Positions 1-7,970 of a stretch of 8,288 nucleotides of DNA are shown piece after piece. Source of the DNA: a virus (Duplodnaviria; Heunggongvirae; Uroviricota; Caudoviricetes); IMG/VR virus record IMGVR_UViG_2654587570_000010, positions 1-8,288 of that record, one strand, 5' to 3'. The notes beneath the pieces were generated by a model that was not told the DNA's origin, did no database searches, and worked only from the letters and a program-made list of their open reading frames with translations. Numbering within the stretch: the first letter of the stretch is position 1; the number at the start of each line of letters is the position of its first letter. The position numbers were made by a program, and so were the translations under genes.

Positions 1-43
1 CAGTAGCTGAACAGGAGGGACAGCTGATAGAAACAGAAGCCAC
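1..43 (-). CDS. insA: IS1 InsA, N-terminal fragment (about 14 codons, continues off-window)
   Basis: On the minus strand, GTG GCT TCT GTT TCT ATC AGC TGT CCC TCC TGT TCA GCT ACT translates to (M)ASVSISCPSCSAT, the remembered InsA N-terminus with its CxxC motif. The GTG start is at 41-43. Confidence 0.8.
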   Translation of the reverse strand, partial: MASVSISCPSCSAT

Positions 44-2993: not shown

Positions 2994-3069
2994 TGGCTCC
3001 TCTGACTGGACTCGAACCAGTGACATACGGATTAACAGTCCGCCGTTCTACCGACTGAACTACAGAGGA
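2994..3069 (-). tRNA. asnT: tRNA-Asn (anticodon GUU), 76 nt with encoded CCA
   Basis: The reverse complement is UCCUCUGUAGUUCAGUCGGUAGAACGGCGGACUGUUAAUCCGUAUGUCACUGGUUCGAGUCCAGUCAGAGGAGCCA, with anticodon loop CUGUUAA. The asnT name is by position between yeeJ and mtfA. Confidence 0.95.
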
Positions 3070-3169: not shown

Positions 3170-3967
3170 TTAATGAACATTCGTCGCCGAAAACGAGTCT
3201 GTATCATTAGTGCGATGCAGTCTCTGCAAAGGATCTTGTTGATAAAATTGGCAGAAACGTTGCCACAATGAAGGGAAACGAGGAGCAAAAAGTTCTGGGG
3301 CGCTAAAGAAATATTCAGAAAGTACGGCAAAACATTCAGCAGGATCACTGGCAGCATAAGCATCAATGCTCGCCGCATTCTCGCCAACTAATTCGATTTC
3401 TTCCTGAATGTTGTTCATTGCAGCATGAAGATCGTGTTCCCAGCCAGCAACCTCACGCAACGGAATAAAGGGAACTCCGCTGGCGCGATCGCCGTTACGG
3501 GTGTCCAGCTTATGAGCGACTTCATGAATAATCAGGTTAAAACCAGAAGCATCAAAAGAATCTTGTATATCCAACCAGTTCAAAACGATAGGCCCTTGCT
3601 GCCAGCTCTGACCTGACTGAACAATACGTTGGTTATGCACCAGACCGATATCGTCTTCCCATTCATCATCGACCACAAATGGCGCAGGATAAATTAAGAC
3701 TTCATGAAAACCATCCAGCCATTCCAGTCCTAACTCCAGAACGGGTAGGCAAAATAGAAGTGCTATCCGGCAGCTTCTTAATGAATCCAGTTCAAAGCCC
3801 TGTAAAGGAACAAGCCGCTTTTGCTGTAAAAAACGTTCGGCAAGAGTGACTAATTTGCTTTGTTCCTGTTCCGTCAGACACGTTAAAAGGGGGATCGATA
3901 GTGCTTCCTGCCAGGGAAGGGCAGTTTGATGTGCTGATTCTTGTACTTTCCAGGGCCACTTAATCAT
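3170..3967 (-). CDS. mtfA: MtfA (Mlc titration factor A), zinc-dependent peptidase, 265 aa
   Basis: The translation [28 protein letters not shown]...HEVAHKLD... contains an HExxH metallopeptidase motif and matches the remembered E. coli MtfA (YeeI) in sequence and length. The start is taken at the ATG at 3965-3967 rather than the upstream GTG used by the ORF track. Confidence 0.92.
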
Positions 3968-4060
3968 CGTTTTGCTCGCAAACTCGTCACTTGAACAAAA
4001 TTGCACGGACAGGGACTGTTAAAATGCCAAATTTCCTGGCATCATGGCAACCATCTGAAC

Positions 4061-4150
4061 GGAGAGATGCCGGAGCGGCTGAACGGACCGGTCTCGAAAA
4101 CCGGAGTGGGGGCAACTCCACCGGGGGTTCAAATCCCCCTCTCTCCGCCA
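4061..4150 (+). tRNA. serU: tRNA-Ser (anticodon CGA), 90 nt, long variable arm, encoded CCA
   Basis: The sequence GGAGAGAUGCCGGAGCGGCUGAACGGACCGGUCUCGAAAACCGG...GGGGGUUCAAAUCCCCCUCUCUCCGCCA has anticodon loop CUCGAAA and a class II variable arm. It is divergent from mtfA, as in the remembered K-12 order. Confidence 0.95.
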
Positions 4151-4195
4151 AAATTCAATCACTTACACATCATTAAGTCAGTGACAAAAATCACA

Positions 4196-4232
4196 CTTGG
4201 AATTACTTGGAATATTTTCTTGGAATATTTTC
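4196..4232. repeat. Three tandem direct repeats CTTGGAAT(T/A) (4196-4205, 4206-4219, 4220-4232), candidate integrase arm-type (P') binding sites in attL
   Basis: Repeats are directly visible: cttggaatta / cttggaatattttc / ttggaatattttc. They overlap the last codons of int (..PENIPRKYSK*) and lie between the tRNA 3' end and int, where P'1-P'3 sit in lambda attL. Function is inferred. Confidence 0.35.
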
Positions 4233-5228
4233 AGGTAACGGGATATTAAGTGTTGGTGAAACTTTAACCTTCCTGTCATAGATTAGCACTTGCCCTTCGG
4301 TTTTGTGACCAGAGAAAAGTTGCTTATCCCGGCTACTTCCTTCATAGTCTGAAATTCCTTTCGCCTTCAGATCATGAAAGGTGAAGTCGGTTAAAATACC
4401 TGAAATTTTTCCAGCACGATTTCTTGCTTCTACCCACATTTCGTTAAAGCCTTTGTACATATATCGGTTGCCGTATTGGTTGCTGATTACATAGGCGGAT
4501 GTTGGTAACTGTTTTGCTTTTTCGATCGCCGCCTGTAATCGTGGACTCCATGCTTTTATCTGTTTTTTCCCTGTTTTCCCTTGCTGGATAAAGATCCCGT
4601 CGTTTCCAATCTGCTCCCATTTCAGCGATAACACATCGGAAATCCTCGCTGCACACAGATAGGCAATTTCCATTGCGATGAAAACAGGAAGAGGTGCAAC
4701 GCTTAATACTGCCTGGTATTCTTTGTCGGTTACATATCGTTCGCGGTTTTTGGCCTTGAATTTACTTACACCTGCACATGGGTTAGCCTTCACGTACCCT
4801 CGCTCATACCCCCAACTGTAAACACGGGACATACTGCTTTTTTCATGGTTGGCTTGCGTTTTACTCTGCTCCCCTCTTTTGTCCATGTATCGACGGATGT
4901 GTTCTGGTTTTATGGAATCTGCCGGCACCTTACCGAATACGGCAAGCAACTTTTTTTGATGTTGCAGATAATCTTTTTGTGTTCTTGGGCTCAACTCACT
5001 GTAACAGGCGCTGGCGAGGAATTTTTCCCACAAGCGACCAAATGTCATTGCACGATCGCGGTTATTTACAGTTTCCTCATACTTTTTCCATAACGCGGCT
5101 AAACCATCTTTGATGGCGGTTAGTGTTACAGATTCTCTGGATGTTGGTTTCCATACATAACTATATTTATTTGGGTATACATTTGGAGGTAATCTTTCGT
5201 GTTCAGGGTTTTTCCTTCGTCTTCCCAT
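4203..5228 (-). CDS. int: Tyrosine site-specific recombinase, lambda-family phage integrase (341 aa)
   Basis: The N-terminus MGRRRKNPEHERLPPNVY resembles the lambda Int arm-binding N-terminal domain (MGRRRSHERRDLPPNLY, from memory). Length is typical, and the gene sits directly next to a tRNA 3' end. The ATG is at 5226-5228. Confidence 0.9.
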   Translation of the reverse strand: MGRRRKNPEHERLPPNVYPNKYSYVWKPTSRESVTLTAIKDGLAALWKKYEETVNNRDRAMTFGRLWEKFLASACYSELSPRTQKDYLQHQKKLLAVFGKVPADSIKPEHIRRYMDKRGEQSKTQANHEKSSMSRVYSWGYERGYVKANPCAGVSKFKAKNRERYVTDKEYQAVLSVAPLPVFIAMEIAYLCAARISDVLSLKWEQIGNDGIFIQQGKTGKKQIKAWSPRLQAAIEKAKQLPTSAYVISNQYGNRYMYKGFNEMWVEARNRAGKISGILTDFTFHDLKAKGISDYEGSSRDKQLFSGHKTEGQVLIYDRKVKVSPTLNIPLPENIPRKYSK

Positions 5229-5437
5229 CAGATCGCACCAAAATTCGGCTCTACCTCGCGTGGTGGTAAAGTTTTATTGCAGGTAAATAGATCCCGGCTG
5301 ACAATCGGTTTGCCACTGCGATTGGTATAGAACGGAAGCCCATTTTCTATTAACCATTTTCGCTGGTGGCTTGCATATTTGCAGCCCGTTAATATTAGCA
5401 ATTCATCTTCGGTTAAAAATAAGCTGCTCATAGCCAT
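5228..5437 (-). CDS. Small excisionase-like / DUF4224-like protein (69 aa), translationally coupled to int
   Basis: Its TGA stop overlaps the int ATG (minus-strand cTGATGg). The motif LTEDELLILTGCKYASHQRKWLIENGLPFYTNRSGKPIV resembles small winged-helix proteins found upstream of phage integrases. Assignment is by pattern and position only. Confidence 0.55.
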   Translation of the reverse strand: MAMSSLFLTEDELLILTGCKYASHQRKWLIENGLPFYTNRSGKPIVSRDLFTCNKTLPPREVEPNFGAI

Positions 5438-5489
5438 ATCTCATAACCGCCGCTAACTATATGCGGTTAGCGGCGATCAGGGTTGAACA

Positions 5490-7970
5490 TTAAAAATCAG
5501 CCTGATCCGGGATCATTTTTTGTATGGTGGCTGTAACGTATTTTGCCTGGTGGAGAGCGTCATCCAGTGCATTATGGCGTACGCCTTCGAATGGAATAGC
5601 TGTCTTGGCATCAAAGTCGATGGTTTTTCCCAGTTCGACGATTGTGCGCACGTCGCGATCGTTGCAGTAATGCCACGGGCAGGTGATCCCCTGCCGTTCA
5701 TATGAACGGCGTAAAATTGTGTTGTCGAAAGTTGCGCCATTGCCCCATACCTGCACGAATTTCTCATCTGAATGTTCGCTGATGAATTCCCGGAACCGTA
5801 AAAGGGCATCCTTCAGTTTTACCTGGTCTACCAAGATTGCAGATCTCGCCTCACTGGACTGCGCCAGCCACCATTCAATGGTGGAACCATCCGGAACAGC
5901 ACCTGTGGTCATTGCGTCAGCTAGGCTGATAACGATATAAAACGTTGGCCCGATTTCCCCTGTCTGCGGATCGAAAAACACAGCACCAATAACCACTATG
6001 GGCGCGTTGGTGTTAGTTCCCATCGTCTCGAGGTCGAGCATCAGGTGGTACCACATTCTGCTGGCGGATGTGGCTTTGTGATGATCGTTCGCCTTAATTA
6101 AGGTATTTGTCGTCTCGCCAGTTTCACCATCGCTATCGTGATAGTGATCATTGCCAGCGTCCTCCTTGTGATGATGTTCAGAGTCTTCCATTTCTTCCGG
6201 ATCTTTTTCCTGAGATTCGACCTGATTTTTTTCATTGAATGTTTCCTGGTATGTTGCGTCGCCCATCACCGCGCCACAATCAGGGCAGTTGCCGCCACCG
6301 CTCTGACCGCAGGTGGTGCAGATCTTTTCCTGTTCTTGTTGCGCTACTGGTTCAGGCTGTTTCGTTTCTGGCTCGTTTTGTAACGCATTTGGGCTGTTTT
6401 GTTCCGCTTTCTGGTCGTTCTGTTCCGTTTCTTGCTGGTTCTGGTTCACAGAATCGCGGGTTTCAATCCCCTTCACCCATTTCGGATCATTCGGGTCGCT
6501 AATCCCTGCAACAAATTCACCACGTGATACTGCAAGCAGTTCATCGGCGTCAGGCTGGCTGATATTGGCTGCCTGCATAATTTTGTTTACTTCGTCAGCG
6601 GTAACTTTTACCGGCCCTGGTTGTGCGGTCGTGTCAGATGCACCAGTATTTTGTTGTGAACCTGAGTATGTACCGTTTTTGCGGGCGAAATATTCTTCTT
6701 TCGTGATTTCAGTAGCCCCGGCAGCCAGTGCCTTATCCAGACCAGAAAGTTTGTTTGCGCGACCGTATTTTTTGCCACCCTTGTCGGTGAAGAGGAAGTA
6801 GAACGGCCCCTCACGCTCTACAGATGGTTCGACTTCCACTTTGCATTCGGTTTTTTCGTTGTCCTGAATTGCCGTTTCCACTGCATCAGTTTCTGGTACT
6901 GGCGACGAGAGAGTATCAGTTGCGCTCTGATTTCTTCCTTCATCTTCAAACACGCCCTTTGTAGTCAGGTATTCAGTAATGTATTTGTTCAGTGCCACAG
7001 GGTCTTTGTGAATGTCGATCGGACGTTCACGGACAAGGCCAAAAATAGTCTGGCGGTCGTAGCGAAGGGCATCAGGCTGTTTGCGCATTGATGCCGAGAT
7101 ACGCTTCCAGTCTTCGCGGTCGTTGTCGATAACTTCATTTTTTGCCCAGCGATGGATGCTGCCGTCAATGTTTCCGGCATCCACATCACCAGGCCAGAGA
7201 GCGTAGGCCAGTTCGTCATCCAGTGTTTTCCATGTCTGCTTGTATTCGCGATGAATGGCAGCAATGACCGGGCTGATTTTTCCTGTTGAATTTTCAGTGT
7301 GCTGTTGATTGGCTCTGGCGCGGGCGAGATCAACAACAGACGTGTATTTTCCGGTTTCCTTGCGTTCACCTTCGCGACGTTTTTTCCAGATGCGCATCTT
7401 TGCCTGAATTTCGGGCCATTTGGCACCAGGCTTACATTTATGCTTAACCCACCCGATGGCATGCAGCTTAAGCTCCGGATACATGGCGTTAACTTCTGGC
7501 ATTTTCATCAACGCTTCAACGATATGTCCGTCGAATGTTGCCATGTCTTCCTGCAACAGTTCCTGCGCGCTAATCACCATATCAACGGTGATGTTTTCAC
7601 ATGTGTCGAACTTAACCATGACAGCGTTCTGTACTTCAGGGGCCAGCTTGTCAAAAGTGACGTTCATAGGATCTGATTCAGTCTCAACCGGGACAAAGGA
7701 AGCAGACTCCTCATCCCAGCGGTTTTCCTGCATAAATTCAGCATCCCAGGAATCGAGGGCAGGGCGGGGTATACCGGGTTTATCCTCGCAAACAAGAAAT
7801 TTATAAGCGCAGTCCTGAGCAGCCGGATAATGTTCCAGGAATTGCCAGTGAAATTTTGCGCGGGCGCGACGTTCATCACCGGCTTCAATGGCTGTGGCTA
7901 CAGGTTTAGCGCCTTCTTGTTTTATTGCCTGTTCGTCCGGAATGGCAGCGCAAATAAAGACTTTACTCAT
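5490..7970 (-). CDS. Prophage exonuclease (826 aa): RecE-like central region with C4 zinc ribbon, fused to a C-terminal DnaQ-like DEDDh 3'-5' exonuclease domain
   Basis: ATG at 7968-7970 with a GAGGT Shine-Dalgarno about 9 nt upstream. Residues about 476-620 (ADELLAVSRGEFVAGISDPNDPKWVKGIETRD...CTTCGQSGGGNCPDCGAVMGDATYQETF...) resemble the central region of Rac RecE as I remember it. Residues about 639-826 carry DEDDh motifs: LDLETMG, WGNGATFD, HNALDDA. Confidence 0.8.
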   Translation of the reverse strand: MSKVFICAAIPDEQAIKQEGAKPVATAIEAGDERRARAKFHWQFLEHYPAAQDCAYKFLVCEDKPGIPRPALDSWDAEFMQENRWDEESASFVPVETESDPMNVTFDKLAPEVQNAVMVKFDTCENITVDMVISAQELLQEDMATFDGHIVEALMKMPEVNAMYPELKLHAIGWVKHKCKPGAKWPEIQAKMRIWKKRREGERKETGKYTSVVDLARARANQQHTENSTGKISPVIAAIHREYKQTWKTLDDELAYALWPGDVDAGNIDGSIHRWAKNEVIDNDREDWKRISASMRKQPDALRYDRQTIFGLVRERPIDIHKDPVALNKYITEYLTTKGVFEDEGRNQSATDTLSSPVPETDAVETAIQDNEKTECKVEVEPSVEREGPFYFLFTDKGGKKYGRANKLSGLDKALAAGATEITKEEYFARKNGTYSGSQQNTGASDTTAQPGPVKVTADEVNKIMQAANISQPDADELLAVSRGEFVAGISDPNDPKWVKGIETRDSVNQNQQETEQNDQKAEQNSPNALQNEPETKQPEPVAQQEQEKICTTCGQSGGGNCPDCGAVMGDATYQETFNEKNQVESQEKDPEEMEDSEHHHKEDAGNDHYHDSDGETGETTNTLIKANDHHKATSASRMWYHLMLDLETMGTNTNAPIVVIGAVFFDPQTGEIGPTFYIVISLADAMTTGAVPDGSTIEWWLAQSSEARSAILVDQVKLKDALLRFREFISEHSDEKFVQVWGNGATFDNTILRRSYERQGITCPWHYCNDRDVRTIVELGKTIDFDAKTAIPFEGVRHNALDDALHQAKYVTATIQKMIPDQADF

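Follow-up and report, generated by a model that had tools for sequence, protein, structure and literature searches.

Direct repeats at the 3' end of a serU prophage integrase gene as probable P' arm-type sites of a lambda-like integrase

Three short direct repeats lie at the 3' end of an integrase gene in a prophage inserted at the Escherichia coli tRNA gene serU, and they raise the question of whether they are binding sites for the integrase itself, sites for another protein, or a repeat that happens to fall at the end of a gene. The window, i.e., the whole stretch of DNA analyzed here (8288 bp), consists of E. coli chromosome and, after it, the left end of a lambdoid prophage. Several complete genomes, among them those of strain D1 and O55:H7 DEC5B, match positions 3950-5500 with 100% identity, and of 5426 complete E. 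coli genomes, 1153 contain the segment that carries the repeats, with O157:H7, O55:H7, ST131, and APEC strains among the carriers. The genes of the window are as follows:

E. coli chromosomal part of the window: 3' part of a yeeJ-like gene
2994-3069, minus strand: tRNA-Asn
3170-4006, minus strand: mtfA
4061-4150, plus strand: tRNA-Ser(CGA) gene serU, the bacterial attachment target (ARAGORN; annotated as tRNA-Ser in E. coli genomes)
4203-5228, minus strand: int, encoding a lambda-like, probably heterobivalent tyrosine integrase (341 aa; open reading frame, PF00589, match to lambda Int in the PDB)
5228-5437, minus strand: a DUF4224 protein of 69 aa (PF13986) directly upstream of int, presumed to be an excisionase or recombination directionality factor
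5490-7970, minus strand: exonuclease gene of the prophage

The interior of the exonuclease gene (6357-6443) carries a 21-nt tandem repeat of its own (4.1 copies, 70% matches), which would give a 7-residue protein repeat.

The octamer CTTGGAAT occurs exactly on the plus strand at 4196-4203, 4206-4213, and 4219-4226 and nowhere else in the window, i.e., three copies against an expectation of 0.37. A repeat search returned ACTTGGAAT three times with start-to-start spacings of 10 and 13, and TRF reported a 10-nt period at 4195-4213 as well as a perfect 13-nt period, CTTGGAATATTTT in 2.1 copies, at 4206-4232. The original prediction had placed three tandem repeats at the int 3' end with spacings of about 10 and 14; the repeats and the first spacing are confirmed, while the second spacing measures 13. 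The copies, situated 46-78 bp past serU, overlap the int stop codon together with the nine codons before it, and the predicted order of core, repeats, and int is found, with the tRNA gene followed by the repeats and then by the body of int. Extended to 10 bp, the three candidate sites are:

4196-4205, plus strand: P'1, candidate arm-type Int site CTTGGAATTA (exact octamer, member of the repeat family)
4206-4215, plus strand: P'2, candidate arm-type Int site CTTGGAATAT (13-bp unit, first copy)
4219-4228, plus strand: P'3, candidate arm-type Int site CTTGGAATAT (13-bp unit, second copy)

P'1 includes the complement of the int stop codon (4203-4205), which falls at the P'1/P'2 boundary, and lies where homologous attP sites have the first of their three repeats. 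P'2 encodes the final codons of int, KYSK, and is unchanged in six E. coli/Shigella variants, while P'3 encodes NIP(R). Read on the reverse strand, P'3 and P'2 (4206-4232) yield codons 333-341 (ENIPRKYSK*), which is exactly the tail that had been predicted. A promoter and terminator scan of 3950-4450 found neither element, and thus gives no sign that the repeats belong to one.

The original prediction also pointed to the opposite prophage end as the place where the same motif should recur, and it does. MFDS1001074 carries a single prophage with an int region identical to that of the window, and the 49.9 kb spanning the element contain five exact octamers: three at attL and two at attR, the latter adjoining the serU 3' fragment in one direct and one inverted copy. 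The same arrangement is found in O55:H7 DEC5B, in which two related lambdoid prophages lie in tandem at serU (2063645-2112214) and are joined by an attP-like hybrid P-O-P' junction. The second of these prophages has NleG-type effector genes just ahead of the junction. Within the junction locus (L002), the elements are:

963, plus strand: P1
1029, minus strand: P2
from 1076: tRNA fragment
1183, 1193, and 1206, plus strand: P'1, P'2, and P'3

No further exact octamer is present in the 50 kb of the first DEC5B prophage. Taken over both arms, the five sites have the consensus CTTGGAAT(A/T)(T/A) and the order and orientation P1(+), P2(-), P'1-3(+). Among prophages with unrelated cargo, homology of the P arm begins approximately 7 bp before P1, so that P1 bounds the conserved module on its outer side. 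Counted from the anticodon centre (4096), the arm sites and the candidate sites for integration host factor (IHF) are located as follows:

-120: P1
-86: H1
-50: P2 (inverted)
-31: H2
+63: H'
+100: P'1
+110: P'2
+123: P'3

The candidate IHF sites were found with the consensus WATCAANNNNTTR. Only two perfect matches exist in the 15-kb junction locus, and both are in the P arm, one between P1 and P2 and the other between P2 and the core. On the P' side, a third candidate sits between the core and P'1:

4153-4165, plus strand: H', candidate IHF site ATTCAATCACTTA (12 of 13 positions match the consensus, which alone is not significant)

An equivalent of H', ATTCAA(A/G)CACTTA, is retained in serU phages that have a different arm motif. 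The P arm also contains a second direct repeat, TTGATTTTTCG (TTGATTTTACG in one variant), which occurs twice (L002 1000-1014 and 1055-1069; L095 20895-20945) and overlaps both IHF consensus sites; these copies may simply be the IHF sites, or may include binding sites for the DUF4224 protein as excisionase.

Phages ev099 and mEp332 looked suitable at first as a source of a free attP for this integrase, as the P arm and the serU fragment are both present. They were rejected because they encode the lambda integrase with an adjoining lambda attP. In ev099 (L004 2300-2800), mEp332 (L003), and PhiR70_1, this normal lambda attP is accompanied by a fossil attR of a serU prophage, made up of a P arm in which both CTTGGAAT sites and the two IHF sites are present, then the serU 3' fragment, then approximately 600 bp of the E. 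coli sequence that lies downstream of serU, with an AraC-type regulator and transposase remnants. The fossil looks like bacterial DNA that was gained by aberrant excision or by recombination with a serU prophage. The serU piece of ev099 and mEp332 is followed by bacterial B' DNA, and was therefore not counted as evidence of function.

Where strands are exchanged can be narrowed by comparing these junctions. The block of identity common to attL, attR, and attP is the phage-borne 3' part of the tRNA gene:

4089-4150, plus strand: identity block, beginning at the second base of the anticodon stem

Within this block, the phage copy of serU has G at 4108 and C at 4119, where the host copy has A and T, respectively; these two positions form a compensatory pair in the variable arm. 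A near-identical P arm is linked to G/C when P' follows, as in the DEC5B junction, and to A/T when bacterial B' follows, as in the ev099 fossil and the MFDS1001074 attR. Since G/C track P' and A/T track B', the crossover must lie to the left of 4108, within 4089-4107, i.e., in the anticodon stem-loop. In a lysogen, serU is rebuilt from a host 5' part and a phage 3' part, and the G..C supplied by the phage in place of A..U in the variable arm implies that lysogens express a slightly altered tRNA-Ser(CGA).

Several features of the integrase bear on the reading of the repeats as arm sites. PF00589 is matched at residues 183-317 (E-value 2e-11), SAM-like and central domains are also found, and Tyr317 is the predicted catalytic tyrosine. 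The best PDB match is full-length lambda Int (1z1b, 5j0n; E-value about 1e-12), aligned from residue 1, and BLASTP and phmmer alignments to lambda Int likewise begin at residue 1 (MGRRR..LPPN.Y). A profile of the N-terminal domain of the family matches residues 1-41 of lambda Int 1-70, with an hhalign probability of only 73% (E-value 3e-5); no Pfam arm-domain model matched residues 1-60, and a single-sequence AlphaFold model of Int reached a pLDDT of 34, too low to confirm the fold of the N-domain. The open reading frame in the window is intact and contains all conserved family residues. Conservation across the family extends through ...SPTL(D/N).P, at about residue 331. From about residue 333 the tails differ in length and sequence and are encoded here by the arm sites. 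The absence of conservation in the tail, together with a frame that shifts with repeat copy number, agrees with the earlier proposal that the motif dictates the protein tail.

The original prediction further suggested comparing conservation of the repeats with synonymous drift in homologous int-proximal regions. When the window is compared with the second DEC5B prophage, whose Int is 94% identical, there are no differences in the 62 positions of the tRNA block, 4 of 44 in the spacer, 2 of 37 in the repeat block, and 20 of 99 in the adjoining int codons. The last two values indicate that the repeats are held more tightly than the protein that they encode. Conservation within E. coli could be due in part to recent common ancestry, and the functional argument rests mainly on the geometry that is kept across the family and on the co-variation of the motif with the integrase.

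A tblastn search for the Int family in bona fide phages yielded ST64B, KpF5, Chris1, Evi, ZF40, mEp390, Fostie, and BUCT708, with 47-61% identity. In all eight, the attP combines a tRNA 3' fragment with 2-4 direct repeats located at the int end, and most have a direct P1 approximately 218-245 bp before P'1 and an inverted P2 approximately 63-66 bp after P1; no P1 was seen in the attP of Fostie and BUCT708. The motifs, TGAGAAAA, TTGGTATA, CTTAGAAT, TTCCTAATAT, TTCGCCAT, and TTCATAAT, are lineage-specific, and their exact copies are confined to the attachment site. The set grew to 88 loci, some of them near-duplicates, with 80 more that a genome scan found in Enterobacterales, Aeromonas, Shewanella, and other genera. 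A triple octamer with spacings of 10-12 and 12-13 is present in 36 of these 88 int-3' windows versus 4 of 4438 control windows, and an exact 9-mer pair with a spacing of 12-13 in 46 of 88 versus 15 of 4438. The triple spacing is (11,13) in 27 cases and (10,13), that of the window, in 8. The geometry is associated with at least a dozen distinct motifs, indicating that the pattern arose or persisted independently.

Some of these loci also differ in their surroundings. In Evi (L010) and in an E. albertii locus (L031), the target is a tRNA-Ser(UGA)-type gene, and the whole att module is flipped with respect to int, the tRNA fragment along with it. The arm with two sites then adjoins int, and the three-site arm is distal. 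In Evi, the latter stays on the tRNA 3' side, from which it follows that the repeats belong to the attachment site and not to the int gene. In ZF40, mEp390, Fostie, and BUCT708 (L011-L014), a strong hairpin with a T-run lies between the tRNA 3' end and the P' sites and presumably replaces the terminator of the tRNA gene after integration; no such terminator is found at 4150-4200 in the E. coli serU prophage.

Across the 88 homologous loci, the geometry is kept, with two or three repeats at the int 3' end spaced by 10/11 and then 13 bp, and the motif changes with the N-terminal domain of Int. Pairs of Int hairpin and motif are listed below:

Int hairpin VYPNKYSYVWKPTS (residues 17-30): motif CTTGGAAT
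Int hairpin NKYSYYYKPT: motif CTTAGAAT
Int hairpin VTKNKYSYVWKPKG: motif (C/G)TTGGTAT
Int hairpin RGRSAYEFKHPDGRTI: motif TTCAGAAGAT
Int hairpin RGKSKYEFHP.GGGSI: motif TTCCTAATAT
Int hairpin IKGPS.VFRP.GGGSI: motif GGGGAATAT

Positions 4-6 of the motif are those that differ among the CTTGGAAT, CTTAGAAT, and CTTGGTAT lineages. Together with the presence of the motif in both arms, this co-variation supports the predicted P' arm-type sites as candidates, at the level of sequence comparison.

The 13-bp unit CTTGGAATATTTT varies in copy number among E. coli prophages, and because 13 is not a multiple of 3, int ends in a different frame at each copy number:

UMNF18 (L099 1246-1272): one unit, 2 sites; Int of 345 aa with the tail ...NIPSNSKCDFCH
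Window (4206-4232): two units, 3 sites; Int of 341 aa with the tail ...NIPRKYSK
O157:H7 EC4115 (L098 1246-1300): three units, 4 sites; Int of 359 aa with the tail ...NIPRKYSKKIFQVIPSVIFVTDLMMCK

The three tails are unrelated to one another, and that of the 4-site allele stops 9 nt beyond the tRNA end. Among the matches listed, the 4-site allele is present in O157:H7 EC4115, TW14359, SS17, SS52, and TR01.

Three other explanations deserve weighing. That the repeats bind the excisionase-like DUF4224 protein, or another accessory protein, in place of Int has a reasonable starting point: the gene always sits beside this int family (it is upstream of int in all 7 phage relatives tested), so a co-variation with the int lineage could reflect the partner, and attL of KplE1 does contain sites bound by its directionality factor, TorI (Panis et al., 2010, PMC2951348). 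Because all relatives tested pair Int with a DUF4224 protein, this candidate binder had to be excluded on other grounds, which are provided by natural exchanges between the two genes. Loci L055 and L065 have DUF4224 proteins that are 87% identical, with identical DNA-binding parts, and yet their motifs are TTCAGAAGAT and TTCACTATAT, respectively, and their Int N-terminal domains are 55% identical; L049 and L051 behave in the same way, with similar DUF4224 proteins and different motifs. Over such pairs with different motifs and Int N-domains, DUF4224 identity is 77-87%. Conversely, L055 and L049 have DUF4224 proteins of only 53% identity (about 52% in such pairs) and have the motif and the Int hairpin in common. 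These swaps indicate that the motif follows Int and not DUF4224. A pairwise regression of motif similarity on the identity of Int-N, Int-C, and DUF4224, in which Int's N-terminal and C-terminal domains are phylogenetically confounded and some start codons and DUF4224 open reading frames were imperfectly extracted, agrees (coefficient of -0.02 for DUF4224 identity versus 0.46 for the Int N-domain), so that DUF4224 identity adds nothing; the swap cases are the better evidence. Moreover, the layout of two plus three sites with an inverted P2 is that of the arm sites of lambda Int. Binding by DUF4224 or another accessory protein in place of Int is thus very improbable. A neutral duplication by slippage, devoid of function in the DNA and with the far-end copies a coincidence or the result of hitch-hiking, would fit the perfect tandem repetition of the 13-bp unit and its variable copy number (1 in UMNF18, 2 in most strains, and 3 in O157:H7 EC4115 and TW14359). 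Over 50 kb, the octamer nevertheless recurs solely at the far end of the prophage, once in inverted orientation; distant relatives with repeats outside the open reading frame keep the geometry but not the sequence; and about 92% of the 1153 E. coli carriers hold exactly three sites. A purely neutral origin is consequently judged very improbable.

The third explanation accepts the arm sites as genuine in origin and regards them as non-functional relics of a defective element in this prophage, and it has more in its favor. Sp11 and Sp12 of O157 Sakai are taken here to be serU prophages, while Sp10, also considered, was ruled out as it is the Rac-site prophage. The integrases of the lambdoid prophages Sp11 and Sp12 were called "disrupted," and no excised circles were detected (Asadulghani et al., 2009, PMC2669165). 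The int gene of O157:H7 EDL933 (L100 1554-2576) has a one-codon in-frame deletion that removes Tyr24 (...NKYSVWKP...) in the predicted arm-binding strand of the N-domain, and this loss might explain why integrases of the Sakai serU prophages were reported to be disrupted and non-excising. Given these two cases, some present-day copies are probably inactive, and the MFDS1001074 prophage has been cut down to about 28 kb. On the other hand, the int gene of the window is intact with every conserved family residue, and the tandem arrays at serU and the presence of the module in so many diverse genomes with differing cargo suggest that it has integrated repeatedly. That the sites of this particular prophage are relics is therefore a minor possibility, though a serious one.

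The reading most consistent with these data, and a highly likely one, is that the repeats constitute arm-type sites P'1-P'3 for a lambda-like integrase whose target is the serU anticodon stem-loop. By this proposal, Int would be heterobivalent: its N-terminal domain (about residues 1-60) would bind the 10-bp arm sites, and its C-terminal domains would bind and cut the core within 4089-4107. Bending by IHF at H' (4153-4165), H1, and H2 would allow one Int protomer to bridge an arm site and a core site, leading to assembly of an integrative or excisive intasome, with the DUF4224 protein as the putative directionality factor. P1 and P2 at the other prophage end would complete the attachment site with P'1-P'3, and the sites would be divided between integration and excision. 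The tail of Int would be a by-product of arm sites read as protein, since the P' arm runs into the int open reading frame. Searches of the literature for a footprint, EMSA, or recombination assay of this integrase or its close relatives found none, and nothing relevant came up there on DUF4224 or on the arm sites of serU/ST64B-type integrases.

The attachment site of lambda offers the closest model. Lambda attP has the arm-type sites P1, P2, and P'1-P'3 (Ross and Landy, 1982; Laxmikanthan et al., 2016, PMC4880445). The layout used for comparison was read from phage ev099, which carries lambda int and lambda attP and matches the arm consensus: P1(+), P2(-), and P'1-3(+), with P' spacings of 10 and 11 and with P'3 overlapping the int stop. 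As in lambda, the serU prophage has five sites in the same order and orientation, three tandem P' sites about one helical turn apart beside int, IHF consensus sites between arm and core sites, and an Int that aligns with lambda Int from residue 1, and the overlap of lambda P'3 with the int stop sets a precedent for a last P' site that overlaps the end of int. The serU prophage motif is CTTGGAATAT, whereas that of lambda is C/AAGTCACTAT, a difference that the original prediction had pointed out, and the P' spacing is 10/13 in the former and 10/11 in the latter. The lambda P' arm lies at about +52 to +82 from the crossover. That of the serU prophage is longer, with its sites at +100 to +132. Unlike in lambda, the core is in a tRNA anticodon stem-loop, the sites extend over nine codons of int where those of lambda touch only the stop, a DUF4224 protein takes the place of Xis as partner, and the two integrases are only about 23% identical.

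Nearer relatives are the serU-integrating phages ST64B (Salmonella), KpF5 (Klebsiella), and Chris1 (Citrobacter), in which Int is 57-59% identical and likewise has a DUF4224 partner. These phages use the same serU 3' fragment as core and have the same P1/P2/P'1-3 geometry. Their arm motifs (TGAGAAAA; TTGGTATA) differ from that of the E. coli prophage, and the P' sites of ST64B and KpF5, unlike those of the E. coli serU prophage, are situated entirely downstream of the int stop. No description of the arm sites of these three phages was found in the literature searched. KplE1 (CPS-53), which encodes IntS/TorI and is located at argW, is another E. coli prophage in a tRNA gene whose attL arm-type sites overlap the int region (Panis et al., 2010, PMC2951348), and it is thus a precedent for attachment sites that overlap int sequences. 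In KplE1, the overlap involves the int promoter and 5' end and serves autoregulation (PMC2951348), whereas that of the serU prophage involves the int 3' end and stop codon, with no regulatory role evident.

The repeats are thus very probably an ordinary feature of a well-known kind, lambda-type arm sites, and they leave the general understanding of site-specific recombination unchanged. They do define the attachment site of one of the commonest E. coli prophage integration modules at serU, with a map that places the crossover in the anticodon stem-loop and shows five arm sites along with three candidate IHF sites. By-products of interest are the polymorphism of copy number and tail, an annotation artefact, and a natural set of at least a dozen pairs of Int N-domain and arm motif in a fixed geometry, which is material for decoding or re-engineering the way in which the N-domains of lambda-type integrases read DNA. 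Within this set, the prophages of Candidatus Arsenophonus triatominarum and A. nasoniae (L055/L057 versus L065-L068) include cases in one genome that have nearly the same DUF4224 protein and different Int N-domains and motifs, which suggests modular exchange between int and its excisionase partner in Arsenophonus prophages.

The annotation artefact concerns the 3-site allele. PGAP, the annotation pipeline of NCBI, labels as "frameshifted" all four of the serU-adjacent 3-site int genes inspected (DEC5B, L001 2763-3813; MFDS1001074, L095 48300-49350; APEC O1, L096 529-1579; EDL933, L100 1529-2576), with a pseudogene feature that runs 25 nt beyond the real int stop, whereas the int of the second DEC5B prophage, also with 3 sites, carries an intact annotation. 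The 3-site open reading frame is intact through the catalytic tyrosine and the conserved C-terminal segment. The label is apparently an artefact of a reference protein taken from a 2- or 4-site allele, and it traces here to arm-site copy number, not gene decay. The C-terminal tail of lambda Int modulates Int activity. It is conceivable, though unlikely, that CTTGGAATATTTT is a slippage-prone switch that sets both the number of P' sites (2, 3, or 4) and the tail of Int; if tail or site number modulates Int, copy number would tune the balance between integration and excision in different lineages.
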